Assembly: GCA_951406725.2 (NCBI GenBank)
Contig: OX597820.1
Span: forward strand, 79,980,001-80,044,000
DNA from: Octopus vulgaris
Taxonomy: Eukaryota
Direction of reading: 5' to 3'
Length of the DNA: 64,000 nt
Made by a program: the position numbers and the translations under genes. Below the pieces are notes generated by a model. The model searched no databases. It was not told the origin of the DNA and saw nothing but the letters and a program-made list of their open reading frames with translations. This document shows positions 3,506 to 62,364 of the stretch, one piece after another. Each line of letters starts with the position of its first letter. Position 1 is the stretch's first letter.

Positions 3506-4010
3506 AGGCGGCGAATTGGCAGAAACGTTAGCCGAGCGAAATGCTTAGCGGTATTTCGTCTGCCGTTACGTTCTGAGTTCAAATTCCGCCGAGGTCGACT
3601 TTGCCTTTCATCCTTTCGGGGTCGATAAATTAAGTACCAGTTATGCACTGGGGTCGATGTAATCGACTTAATACCTATGTCTGTCCTTGTTTGTCCCCTC
3701 TGTGTTTAGCCCCTTGTGGGTAATAAAGAAATAGGTATTTCGTCTGCCGCTACGTTCTGAGTTCAAATTCTACCGAGGTCGACTTTGCCTTTCATCCTTT
3801 CGGGGTCGATTAAATAAGAACCAGTTACGCACTGGGGTCGATATAATCGACTTAATCCGTTTGTCTGTCCTTGTTTGTCCTCTCTGTGTTTAGCCCCTTG
3901 TGGTTAGTAAAGAAATAGGTATTTCGTCTGCCGTTACGTTCTGAGTTCAAATTCCGCCGAGGTCGTCTTTGCCTTTCATCCATCCGGGGTCGATTAAATA
4001 AGTACCAGCT
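3506..4010 (+). mobile_element. SINE family S1 (tRNA-like head), tandem array of about three units
   Basis: Head ggcggcgaattggcagaaacgttagc with B-box-like gagttcaaatt; ggtatttcgtctgccg...gcctttcatcctttcggggtcgat recurs at ~3550, ~3735 and ~3918. Confidence 0.9.
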
Positions 4011-5454: not shown

Positions 5455-5868
5455 TTAGTAAATGTCTATAAAAGAGGTAGGGTAGGGGTGACATTGATTC
5501 ATGACGTTGTTACCAGTTAAAGGAGCATACACTGTGAAAATTAAGATGATACCTTGATTGAGATCTAGGAAAACATTAGGGACTCAGTGGGACCCCTATG
5601 ACCCCCATTGTGTTCCATGCCACTTTAAACATTGTAGGCTATTCTTCTCTTAACTTTTCTTGCTGCAATGGTGACAACATGAAATTTTCTCATCTTCTTG
5701 CTCTGTTAAAATATTTAAGAAAAATTAAATTAATATATCTTGCCTGTTGAAAATCCATATTTCTTGCAGCTGAAGATAGCGCTGCATTGATGTAATGCTT
5801 GCATTGTTCAGTTAAATGGAGGCACTTGAAACGGCCGTACTGCAATACTACTTGACATCCTGTTACTT
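5455..5868 (+). mobile_element. Non-coding HHR-bearing element, family C (Penelope pLTR / retrozyme-like)
   Basis: 5590-5865 is homologous to 18650-18925; 5461-5488 matches 17081-17110; ends in an HHR. Confidence 0.7.
5764..5845 (+). ncRNA. Type-I hammerhead ribozyme, family C, core intact
   Basis: TTGCAG-CTGAAGA-[long imperfect stem II]-GAAAC-GGCC-GTA-CTGCAA: perfect 6-bp stem I, palindromic ACGGCCGT, GUA triplet. Confidence 0.8.
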
Positions 5869-5920
5869 CATTATTTACATTATTTACATTTGACGGATAT
5901 TTGTCCTCATCTTTGTTGCT

Positions 5921-5966
5921 AATACAATGTTTCGGCTAATATACCCTCCAGCCTTCATCAGGTGTC
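5921..5966 (-). ncRNA. Minimal hammerhead ribozyme, family A (left arm)
   Basis: Reverse complement gacac-CTGATGA-a-GGCTG..TAGCC-GAAA-ca-TT-gtatt; core intact, one stem I mismatch, palindrome decayed. Confidence 0.7.
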
Positions 5967-6013
5967 CTGGGGAAATTTCGAACCTGGGTTCTCATTCCTA
6001 AGTCATTTTGCGA

Positions 6014-6073
<60 letters not shown>

Positions 6074-6078
<5 letters not shown>

Positions 6079-6150
6079 TCACTGCCTAGAATCGAAATCG
6101 GAATTTTGGGGTTAGTAACCCGGGCTCTTAACAACTACACCATATGCCTG
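6074..6150 (-). ncRNA. tRNA-like (Pol III A/B box) module inside the family A element; not a functional tRNA
   Basis: Reverse complement ggtgtagttgttaagagcccgggttactaaccccaaaattccgatttcgattctaggcagtgacctg; second copy at 44471-44541 has the clearer B box gagttcgattcc. Confidence 0.65.
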
Positions 6151-6220
6151 AATAATAATAATAATCATAATAATAATAACAACAACAACAACATCAATAA
6201 TAATAATAATAATAATAATC

Positions 6221-6288
<68 letters not shown>

Positions 6289-6363
6289 AATGATAATAAT
6301 AATGATAATGATAACATCGAAAAATACCTTAGGAATGAGAACCCAGGTTCGAAATTTCCTCAA

Positions 6364-6409
6364 GACACCTGATGAAAGCTGGAGTGTATACCAGCCGAAG
6401 CGTTGTGTT
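6364..6409 (+). ncRNA. Minimal hammerhead ribozyme, family A (right arm), GAAA>GAAG
   Basis: gacac-CTGATGA-aa-GCTGG agtgtata CCAGC-c-GAAG-cg-TT-gtgtt. Confidence 0.7.
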
Positions 6410-6519
6410 AACAACAAACAAGATGAGGACAAATATCCGTCAAATGTAAATAACGTAAATAATGTACATAATTCCTCATCTCTTAAATCTAGAACTGTAT
6501 TATAGTGTTACTTATTTTG

Positions 6520-29697: not shown

Positions 29698-30842
<1,145 letters not shown>

Positions 30843-41616: not shown

Positions 41617-42171
41617 GCTCTGATGCAATACCAGTCAGTGTTTCTCATGGCTGCTGATCTTAACTGATTGGAAGTGGTATCATGTACATTGTTTTGTCTT
41701 GGTATAAAAGATGGGCTACAGCAAATATTCTGCTCAATACCACAGATTTGCTTGTCAGTTGTTTGACCGTAACCAGTTGAGCATGTCCCTTAGTGGCTGA
41801 CGATATGTGCATCTCTGATCACGAGCAGAAGTAGTGGGGGAGAATCATAACCATGTGTTGAAAGGAATTCTTTGAGGTTGGATAATTCACCTTTGGAAAC
41901 ATGGGTGGTTCGTTCAACATAATTAAATAATCCTTATTCAGGGACCTTTTAAGCGGGATGGGCTACACGACCAGAAGAAAATTCTTACTGGGCCCCACCT
42001 GCAAGGTCATGTGCTGTTTATCTTGATATGAGATTACCATGTCGCGCCGAACATATGGTTGTGATGCATGTGCCTAGTGTACCCTTATCAGACGGGTAGT
42101 CATGATGGGTATACTGGGCTTCGTATATTTGTACCCGTGTCACTTTGATGGAATGCACTGCTCTCTCACTC
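41617..42171 (+). mobile_element. T560 element, apparently full length
   Basis: Same 5' start as the 57578 copy; fixed 3' end; (TAA)n on both flanks. Confidence 0.92.
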
Positions 42172-44055: not shown

Positions 44056-44304
44056 TGGCAATAAATGATATTGATTACTAGAATTACTCCAAAGTGGCAT
44101 ATTTTGGAAGTCGCAACCAGTTTATTACTGGTACTTACTGAGCTAAGGTAGGAACGTTCTGGAAATGTTAGAAATCATAAACCCATATGAGGATACATTA
44201 ATTCATCCAAGTAGATTGCAGCACTGCATTGTAATTAGATTCATCGAATTATTAAAAACCTTGCGGACGGAGATAAAACAACAGAAAACAAAACATAATC
44301 TTCG

Positions 44305-44542
44305 TTCTAGATTTAAGAGATGAGGAATTATGTACATTATTTACATTATTTACATTTGACGGATATTTGTCCTCATCTTGTTTGTTGTTAACACAACGTT
44401 TCGTCTGCTATACCCTCCAGCCTTCACCAAGTGTCTTGGGGAAATTTCGAACCTGGGTTCTCATTCCTAAGGTATGTCATAGTGGTTAAGAGCTCGGCTA
44501 CTAACTTCAAGATTCCGAGTTCGATTCCAGGCAGTGACCTGA
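44305..44542. mobile_element. Family A element, partial: HHR arm (44390-44435, - strand, core mutated to TTGGTGA) plus tRNA-like module
   Basis: Reverse complement of 6328-6497, followed by tagtggttaagagctcggctactaac...gagttcgattccaggcagtgacctg(aat)n. Confidence 0.85.
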
Positions 44543-48600: not shown

Positions 48601-49409
48601 TTACATTGTATAAAAGGGCTTAGTAAAATAAATTACTTTGCCACATACTGAACTCATTAGAAATAGCAGCCAAAAAAAGAATTTTTAGCGATTTCTAATA
48701 CTTAAAGAAGATTTCTCTCAGATAGTGTTTACTCAAAATAACCCACGAAGGTATGGGGGTAAAAACATTAAAAAATCACAAATGTAAAGATTATTTGAGA
48801 ACGTACGTTTCTAGATCAGCCAAATACAATTCGACATTTCTTTCGTCAGCCCAAAATTTCTTAATTCGGATTTGGAAACACTGAAAGCAGGAGCATACTC
48901 TTTTGGCGACTTTTCACCTCAGAAGAACCGTTCAAACTAACAGTGCCAACAAATTCAAAATATGCAAGCGAAGAATTCCTGCTCTCCCCTTCCACCCACG
49001 TGGGTCAGACTAGTAAACACCATATTTTATCGGTGAAAACCGAGGCATTAAACAGAGAGAAATGAATTATAATTTCAACAATTGAGGGTAAAATTAATTA
49101 GCTATTAATCAATTTCACCAAGTATTCAGTATGTAAAGGGACCATTTAAGGCGAATTCAAAATATTACATTGTATAAAAGGGCTTAGTAAAATAAATTAC
49201 TTTGCCACATACTGAACTTATTAGAAATGGCTAAAAAATCTTTTTTTGGCTGCTATTTCTAATGAGTTCAGTATGTGGCAAAGTAATTTATTTTACTAAG
49301 CCCTTTTATACAATGTAATATTTTGAATTCGCCTTAAATGGTCCCTTTACATACTGAATACTTGGTGAAATTGATTAATAGCTAATTAATTTTACCCTCA
49401 ATTGTTGAA

Positions 49410-49411
<2 letters not shown>
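48601..49411 (-). mobile_element. HHR-bearing element, family D: 564-bp unit, partial direct repeat and 340-bp palindrome
   Basis: 48601-48665 repeated at 49165-49228; arms 49072-49228 and 49255-49411 nearly perfectly inverted; (TA)n flanks. Confidence 0.88.
48794..48855 (-). ncRNA. Type-I hammerhead ribozyme, family D, core intact
   Basis: Reverse complement TTTGGG-CTGACGA-a-aga..GTCGAAT tgt ATTTGGC..tct-a-GAAAC-GTAC-GTT-CTCAAA. Confidence 0.82.
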
Positions 49412-57577: not shown

Positions 57578-58797
<1,220 letters not shown>

Positions 58798-60574: not shown

Positions 60575-61357
60575 GGTAACAGTGACCCCAACGGGCTAAG
60601 GTGCGCAAAGGTGTATGTGAGAATGCTTTGTGTGGATATGTATGTATAAATGGGAGTGAGTGAGTATGTATTTGTGGGCGAGTGTGAGTGTGTGTGTGTC
60701 TGTGTGTGTGCGTATGGACGGGTATATATGTGTGGGACTAACGTGTGTGTGTTGTTTGTAGCAATTGATGCGTGCTTCCTCAGGTCGTGTGTGCACGTGT
60801 GTATGTGTGTGTGTCTCTGTGACCAAATAGTGTGCATGTGTATAGTATATGCTTGTGGGCGAAATTTGCGTGTGTTTGCATATTGTTTGTGTTCAGGTGT
60901 TATGTGTTTGTGTGCGTGTGGGAGTGTGCATGGTGGTGTGTGGTGTGTGTACTGAGTTAAACAGTGTGTGTATCTGTTTGTATAGTGGTATGTGTGGTAA
61001 CACTATTAAAGATTGTGTGTGGGTGTGTGGATAATGGTGTGTGGTGTGGGTACTAAGAAGTGTTCTATGATAGTATGTGTGTAGAGTGGGAAGGTGTCTG
61101 GAGGGGTGTGTGTAATTATGTGTGAAGTGAGTAATGAGTTGAGTAGTGTATATGGGTGTTTGTGTAGTGGTTTGTGTGTGTGAGGGTACAGAGATAGGCG
61201 CTATGTAGGTGTATAGGTGGAGGGGTGGCAGTTGAATGTGGGATTTGTGTGGGAATCCGTGTGGAGTTGGTATCAGATAAAGAGAGGTAGTGAGTTGAGC
61301 CGATATGATGCAAAAGGAGCGAAGATATATATATATATACACATATATATATAGTGT

Positions 61358-61523
61358 AGAAGTGGCTGTGTGGTAAGATGCTTGCTTATGAACCATATGG
61401 TTCCGGGTTCAGTCCCACTGCGTGGCACCTTGGGAAAGTGTCTTCCTCTATAGCCTCGGGCCGACCAAAGCCTTGTGAGTGGAGTTGGTAGACGGAAACT
61501 AAAAGAAGCCCGTCGTATATATG

Positions 61524-61554
<31 letters not shown>

Positions 61555-61748
61555 ATATATGTTTGCGTGTCTGTTTTTGTACCCCCAACATCACTTGACA
61601 ACCGATGCTGGTGTGTTTACGTCCCCGTAATTTAGCGGTTAAACAAAAGTGACTGATGGAATAAGTCCTGGGATCGATTTGCTCGACTAAAGGTGGTGCT
61701 CCAGCATGGCCACAGTCAAATGACTGAAACAAGTAAAAGAGTAAAAGA

Positions 61749-61750
<2 letters not shown>
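61358..61750 (+). mobile_element. SINE S2
   Basis: Full S2 motif set. Confidence 0.93.
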
Positions 61751-61786
<36 letters not shown>

Positions 61787-61899
61787 CTACAGTTTTTTGT
61801 GATGTTTTTGCAGCTTTAATAATAAAGTATATTATTCTACCTCTGGTATTTGAGTTAAATCTTTGCCACCTTGATTCACATTTATGTGCTTACTCTGGT

Positions 61900-62325
61900 A
61901 TACTCTTTTACTCTTTTACTCTTTTACTTGTTTCAGTCATTTTGACTGCGGCCATGCAGGAGCACCGCCTTTAATCAAGCAACTCGACCCCGGGACTTAT
62001 TCTTTGTAAGCCCAGTCCTTATTCAATCGGTCTCTTTTGCCAAACCGCTAAGTGACGGGGACAGAAACACACCAGCATCGGTTGTCAAGCAATGCTAGAG
62101 GGACAAATACAGACACAAACATACACGCACACACACACACACATATAAATATACATACATACGACGGGCTTCTTTCAGTTTCCGTCTACCAAATCCACTC
62201 ACAAGGCTTTGGTCGGCCCGAGGCTATAGTAGAACACACTTGCCCAAGGTGCCACGCAGTGGGACTGAACCCGGAACCATGTGGTCGGTAAGCAAGCTAC
62301 TTACCACACAGCCACTCCTGCGCCT
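61900..62325 (-). mobile_element. SINE S2, full length
   Basis: Reverse complement begins ggcgcaggagtggctgtgtggtaag. Confidence 0.95.
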
Positions 62326-62326
62326 A

Positions 62327-62364
<38 letters not shown>

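Follow-up and report, generated by a model that had tools for sequence, protein, structure and literature searches.

A Penelope-like element of Octopus vulgaris whose pseudo-LTR opens with a tRNA-like head, a candidate Pol III-type promoter

The DNA analysed in this study (hereafter the window) is a 64,000-nt stretch of the Octopus vulgaris genome (contig OX597820.1, positions 79,980,001 to 80,044,000, forward strand), to which the coordinates below refer unless a locus is named. Near its left end it carries two inverted arms of a dispersed repeat. The left arm (5869–6013, minus strand) has a short 3' end, stopping near arm position 150 without a tail, and is preceded in its own direction by an (AAT)n spacer (6014–6074, minus strand, read as TTA on the plus strand) and a 76-nt tRNA-like head (6075–6150, minus strand). 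The head contains motifs which we take, from their box consensus, to be an A box (approx. 6142–6132) and a B box (approx. 6097–6089). It is followed by an expanded, mixed (AAT/AAC/AAG/GAT)n spacer (6151–6314, plus strand) and by the right arm (6315–6503, plus strand), which has an ATG at 6335 and a long 3' end with a tail of approx. 33 nt (to 6497, arm position 183); about 6 nt beyond 6497 match the ORF continuation of another copy (L125). Alignment of 5869–6013 with 6315–6497 gave 88.6% identity over 148 nt. The whole is bordered by a likely target-site duplication (TSD), TGTTACTT, at 5861–5868 and 6506–6513, identified by the 8-nt match and by the family-wide TSD test described below.

The initial annotation had described this locus as a symmetric fold-back element, i.e. 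arm, (TTA)n, tRNA-like unit, (AAT)n, arm. All of these parts are present in their places, but the symmetry does not hold, as the arms are unequal and the head lies on the strand of the left arm, to which it belongs. The locus is a decayed insertion composed of one head-bearing copy on the minus strand and an inverted, 5'-truncated, headless second copy.

Each arm carries a minimal type-I hammerhead motif. On the left (5921–5966, minus strand) it is damaged in the CG palindrome and in stem I, while on the right (6364–6409, plus strand; predicted cut after 6404) G10.1 and A15.1 are altered. A second insertion consists of an inverted arm with a long 3' end (44304–44475, minus strand; 95% identity to the right arm), whose hammerhead (44390–44435) has core lesions, and of an adjoining 5'-truncated head (44480–44541, plus strand), which starts from about +4 and leads into a few AAT units but lacks an arm of its own. 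Thus, all three hammerhead copies in the window are damaged, and their alignment bore out the earlier observation that the lesions differ. The head at 6075–6150 differs from the commonest letter of the family by one G>T change in each box, so that the window copy is probably a dead promoter and, as judged from these changes, probably silent. The right arm and the arm 38 kb away have a rare C in common close to their 3' ends (at 6489 and 44312; present in 3 of the 74 scorable arms, including both of these), which may reflect local copying or gene conversion.

Several other repeats were detected in the window. Another family is present in direct and inverted copies beside long (AAT)n tracts (1–147, 41705–42114 and 57810–58709), and a further SINE-like family is represented in the window by at least six copies, with an inverted pair of 244 nt whose members are separated by 528 nt (61331–62346). 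There are also two unrelated tandem arrays with a period of 184 bp each (3550–4008 and 30471–30841), a near-perfect (99%) 160-bp inverted repeat with a 20-nt spacer (49072–49411), and an R4/Dong-like ORF fragment.

Analysis of further copies revealed that the true unit is directional: a tRNA-like head, an (AAT)n spacer and a hammerhead arm of approx. 183 nt, to which an inverted, 5'-truncated second copy is added. A co-oriented arm followed the head within 1.5 kb in 26 of 30 loci picked by head similarity, and in 23 of 30 loci anchored by the B box (the first 30 exact matches to the B-box motif on contig C1, two pairs of which are two heads of one insertion). Wherever both parts occurred in the loci examined, the order head, (AAT)n, arm was invariant. 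Head and arm thus form one unit, as had been supposed, and the opposite outcome, in which the two would occur mostly independently and adjoin through a shared (TAA)n target, was not observed in this co-occurrence test. That they are independent elements has next to no probability. The (AAT)n tract does draw other elements, such as an R4/Dong-like ORF in L097, and no co-oriented head was detected in 12 of 30 loci anchored by an arm motif; against this, the order, the orientation and the junction sequences are fixed, spacers are as short as 14 nt, 25 of 30 loci anchored by the endonuclease (see below) show head and then arm in that order, and the headless arms are accounted for by 5' truncation and secondary insertions.

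The (AAT)n spacer is itself a landing pad for elements targeting (TAA)n. The R4/Dong-like retroelement ORF (with a zf-RVT match) lies within the head-arm spacer at L097:1420–2472 (minus strand), and such ORFs were also found in L037 and L047. The spacer also frequently houses a second repeat, which ends in CTCTCTCACTCAATAAT (L004, L020, L027, L049, L138, L316). In one region (C4, approx. 66.16 and 66.17 Mb; L101/L109 and L110) the same insertion together with its flanks is present twice, approx. 10 kb apart, which represents a local duplication.

The 3' ends of the arms were bimodal, falling at 137–159 and 180–183. The TSD analysis proposed in the initial annotation was performed on the random and motif-anchored (i.e. 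unselected) sets, which after de-duplication provided 34 fold-backs; 32 of them combined one long with one short arm, the 3' ends being approx. 33 nt apart. Exact flank matches of at least 8 nt (typically 9–13 nt, range 8–13) were found in 16 of the 34, compared with 0.7% in a swapped-flank control. These values supersede a first count of 25/59 (control 1.4%), in which duplicated loci and matches in microsatellites had been counted as well. The same two 3' ends, 33–34 nt apart, were also present in reads or contigs of sequencing runs under four other organism labels.

The hammerhead fits the minimal type-I form, which has been described by Cervera and de la Peña (2014; PMC4209133, in its available text). 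It has the core boxes, an extra A after A9, the G10.1–C11.1 pair and a short stem I, while helix III is replaced by a CG palindrome and stem II is 5–6 bp long rather than 7–8. Among 230 arms covering it, the core was intact in 75, and the core and both stems in 40. In an intact natural copy, stems I and II form in the predicted centroid structure, although the folding energy is no better than that of shuffled sequences (z = −0.63); when cofolded as a dimer, stem I is paired between the strands and no clean active fold is predicted. Judged by sequence and predicted fold, the motif is real. Searches with Rfam, at the gathering level in the window and at E values up to 10 in three loci and two short stretches, gave no match to a tRNA or hammerhead family, and a strict hammerhead pattern revealed no further convincing site in the window (one match, compared with 6 in 100 shuffles).

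As for the ends of the element, the cut is predicted after arm position 90, and the 3' ends lie 50–90 nt beyond it. Only 1 of 207 arm 3' ends fell within positions 85–95, and the 5' starts showed no peak at the cut site. The proposal that the ribozymes define the ends is contradicted by these distributions, which already largely refute the model of which it was a part, namely a self-contained fold-back hybrid of a SINE and a retrozyme with ends set by outward-facing hammerheads. Inverted arms are indeed common (upstream in 23/30 arm-motif and 16/30 B-box loci), and in Sm-alpha of Schistosoma a hammerhead is combined with a Pol III promoter (PMC6765202, available text); yet the inverted part has a variable 5' truncation, its length being anything between a few bases and over 1 kb of ORF, and the unit is contiguous on both sides with an ORF encoding a reverse transcriptase (RT) and an endonuclease (EN). 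We regard this model as very improbable. Rather than a discrete fold-back with arms around a core, what is present is a directional unit in 1.5 copies, arranged in the inverted fashion usual for Penelope. A Foldback or MITE-type DNA transposon was likewise rejected, given the unequal arms, the variable 5' truncation, the TSDs of 8–13 nt and the RT linkage.

In two head loci the end of a GIY-YIG-like ORF was located directly upstream of the head, and a peptide search from there yielded 30 loci. The head came right after the ORF end in 28 of these EN-anchored loci, a co-oriented arm was present in 26, and both were present in 25. At the opposite end of the element, the arm adjoined the continuation of the ORF in 26 of 30 loci anchored by the ORF start. 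Eight ORF-start loci had a head upstream: three began at the head start, two inside the head, and three were partial tandems. Partial tandems with the order EN, head, arm, ORF start are represented by L344, L346 and L358. In L361 the order head, arm, ORF, head extends over approx. 2.85 kb, with ORF pieces spanning residues 54–846 of the homolog P0005. The longer copies contain RT motifs (Pfam RVT_1, E = 2.9e-8), and the homologs are RT proteins of 510–930 aa, two of which pass the Pfam GIY-YIG model. Although Pfam GIY-YIG gave no match to the family's own endonuclease, its C-terminal domain has invariant residues (Y, CxC, Y-GET, R, H, H, E) in common with the GIY-YIG-positive homologs. In the alignment with the homologs, no cysteine cluster was seen in a linker between RT and EN, where an extra Zn-finger would lie. 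Among the loci fetched no intact ORF was found, and the ORF was seen only in broken copies. The reading frame of the arm, which starts with the ATG at 6335, matches the N-terminus of P0005 in 10 of 17 residues, and by this comparison the arm, on either side of the window locus, encodes the predicted N-terminus of the RT-endonuclease ORF.

We are highly confident that the unit is the pseudo-LTR of a protein-coding, EN-containing (EN+) Penelope-like element (PLE), and not a purely non-autonomous SINE or retrozyme as had been proposed, since the unit belongs to an RT-endonuclease element and the arm codes for the start of its ORF. A Penelope/Poseidon-type placement within the PLEs is suggested by the domain layout. 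A separate SINE lineage sharing only the 3' end was rejected as well, because the whole unit, including the head, is contained within the ORF-bearing element. Comparison of 145 solo heads with 79 ORF-linked ones revealed no column differing at p<0.002 and hence no sign of a separate SINE subfamily; the arms of the two classes were distinguished by a single column and a short indel in the TAAATAATG repeats only. An ORF upstream of the head in L002, considered as a candidate Penelope RT, was rejected, as it matches another LINE (L103) and is therefore only the target site. Fragments resembling other, more distant Penelope-like families of the same genome were found at L099:4525–5316 (plus strand) and L208:3372–3932. 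A metagenome scan with P0005 for relatives, in which the presence of a tRNA head could be checked, detected none.

In the available text of reports on EN+ PLEs (Penelope of Drosophila virilis and PAc of Anolis, PMC11167929), the elements resemble the octopus family in the single ORF with an RT plus, at its C-terminus, a GIY-YIG-type domain, in the pseudo-LTR overlapping the ORF start with a hammerhead located there, in the optional tail of 30–40 bp, and in the partial tandems, the inverted 5'-truncated copy and the AT-rich targets. Similarly, Craig et al. (PMC8557442, in the text available) describe PLE insertions with an inverted 5'-truncated copy and a 30–40-bp tail at one end, and Frangieh et al. 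(PMC11167929) show two internal start sites of the RT early in the ORF, with the tail lying between them. By analogy with this published work, the endonuclease of the octopus element would nick AT-rich DNA, the RT would start at two internal sites approx. 120–165 nt into the ORF, giving rise to the short and the tailed ends, and copy back to the 5' end of the RNA, and a second, truncated cDNA would be joined head to head. At L361:5020–5085 (minus strand) the tail end and the first ORF bases form four tandem repeats, which suggests repeated re-initiation of the RT at the tail site. According to the same available text (PMC11167929), the PLE ORF begins within the hammerhead; this cleaves only when protein is present, and insertion in vitro does not depend on the cleavage. 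The octopus hammerhead lies within the start of the ORF; it would have to act as a dimer or with the help of a protein, and it does not set the ends.

Unlike the pseudo-LTRs of EN+ PLEs, that of the octopus element opens with a module that carries A and B boxes and is derived from a tRNA, together with an (AAT)n spacer. When the head was compared with tRNA genes of the same genome (35 distinct ARAGORN calls from 30 loci, covering only some isotypes), the highest z values over shuffles were obtained for Arg(TCG) (7.3), Arg(TCT) and Ala (7.0 each) and Thr (6.9). The head was not called as a tRNA by the Rfam model or by ARAGORN, which found none in the window, and has no cloverleaf fold. Its 5' ends are clustered. 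In 30 B-box-anchored heads, 25 ended at −22 to +4, four inside (one of which is an internal deletion continuing upstream) and one was a read-through to the ORF; 14 of the 18 heads in the arm-motif set ended at −18 to +2; and, among 36 heads of the arm-anchored and random sets, 24 ended near the start and one was a read-through. These head 5' ends fall 2–14 nt upstream of the A box. The start site of a type-2 Pol III promoter is expected in the same region, just upstream of the A box. Both the boxes and the pile-up of 5' ends make the Pol III-type promoter suggested in the initial annotation plausible, and judging from sequence we consider it reasonably probable that the head start serves as such a promoter for short transcripts. 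In this scheme, transcription would begin at the head, which would quite probably set the 5' end of the RNA, and short head-to-arm RNAs would, with a similar likelihood, be copied in trans in the manner of a SINE, and would hence outnumber the ORF-bearing copies. Transcription of the whole ORF by Pol III from the head seems rather unlikely.

The main competing explanation accepts the same PLE, but regards the head as passive, the remains of a tRNA-SINE once taken up into the 3' UTR, with the RNA made by Pol II or by read-through and with a hairpin that stops the RT, or primes fold-back synthesis, and so generates the pile-up of 5' ends. In ORF-linked copies a hairpin (−9.6 kcal/mol as RNA and −5.4 as cDNA) spans exactly the head start and could by itself cause both the pile-up and the inversion; moreover, several inversions break at or near this palindrome. 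However, copies without an inverted partner also start at −5 to +4 (L224, L238, L271, L274 and L289), as do, at the head start, the full-length ORF-bearing copies L332, L355 and L357, and the position of the ends relative to the A box is that expected of a Pol III start. From the available text of previous studies, the Penelope promoter of Drosophila is internal, TATA-less and LINE-like, with Inr/DPE motifs (PMC2377424), unlike the tRNA-like octopus head, and, as Kojima (PMC10886601) argues, Pol II must serve the autonomous partners of Pol III-headed TRIMs. In one raw RNA run (under another organism label, approx. 6% of which was read) the depth was equal on both strands and the reads mostly extended into unrelated flanks, which resembles read-through; in the same part of the run, molecule ends did not accumulate at the head or at the cut site. 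On the other side, no position along approx. 2.5 kb of the sense strand has TTTT in at least 25% of copies. Although 4–4.5 are expected from base composition, p is only 0.11–0.22 under a run-extension model, and three of five scorable control ORFs also had no shared TTTT (four of the nine controls had too few copies to score), so that this absence is weak evidence. We judge the passive remnant to be the less probable reading, though one with a real share of the probability.

Taken as a whole, the locus is very probably best explained as a decayed PLE pseudo-LTR, present as one copy and an inverted, truncated one, with a head that is likely a Pol III-type internal promoter setting the 5' end of the RNA. 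The strongest form of this reading is an autonomous, protein-coding retrotransposon whose pseudo-LTR has captured a tRNA promoter, from which Pol III transcribes the element end to end, and whose sense strand is kept clear of TTTT terminators; a solo pseudo-LTR would then be a ready-made SINE, and SINE and mobilising partner would be contained in one sequence. We put it forward tentatively and consider it doubtful.

In 80 evenly spaced 10-kb stretches of nine large contigs (the genome comprises 2.8 Gb in 227 contigs), the family was detected in 12, with 17 arm and 11 head matches, which suggests approx. 40,000 insertions (roughly 20,000–70,000). As exact 25-mers, the head was counted 1,784 times and the arm 5,342 times; contig depths were not taken as copy numbers. 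The median divergence from the commonest letter per column was 4.6–7.2%.

Octopus tRNA-SINEs were reportedly described by Ohshima and Okada in 1994, so that the head may have been annotated before. At the level of titles and abstracts, and mostly outside subscription journals and Repbase, we found no report of a tRNA-derived head in an ORF-bearing PLE. The closest parallels, described here from the available text of each source, each differ in an essential respect. Sm-alpha and Sj-alpha of Schistosoma (PMC6765202) are likewise short, abundant repeats with a type-I hammerhead downstream of a Pol III-type promoter, but they are non-coding tandem repeats released by cleavage, whereas the octopus unit lies within an ORF-bearing element, is inserted head to head with a tail and TSDs, and has ends that are not set by its minimal hammerhead. 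TRIMp3 elements (Cassandra, Helenus and Ajax; PMC10886601) have a Pol III promoter derived from a small RNA (tRNA or 5S), possibly a captured SINE, in the terminal repeat; they are, however, non-autonomous LTR elements with PBS and PPT, while the octopus repeat is a pseudo-LTR shared with a protein-coding element. Animal non-LTR retrozymes (bioRxiv 10.64898/2026.07.22.740005) are non-autonomous, related to PLE pseudo-LTRs and equipped with type-I hammerheads. They are defined as head-to-tail tandems, in contrast to the dispersed and inverted octopus copies, and, instead of head-to-tail units released by cleavage, we found dispersed head-to-head units with a single end in 207 near the cut. The words 'tRNA' and 'promoter' are absent from the available main text of that preprint.

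Fold-back, tail and hammerhead all belong to the textbook picture of Penelope, and the tRNA-derived head in the terminal repeat is the unusual part. For annotation, these repeats should be merged into a Penelope family and not listed as a separate SINE or MITE. The tens of thousands of young copies constitute a natural data set for the origin of PLE inversions, tails and 5' ends. A head acting as a working promoter would, if true, contradict the stated view that Pol II is required by autonomous retroelements, and would provide a direct route from PLE pseudo-LTRs to repeats combining Pol III promoters with hammerheads, such as Sm-alpha.
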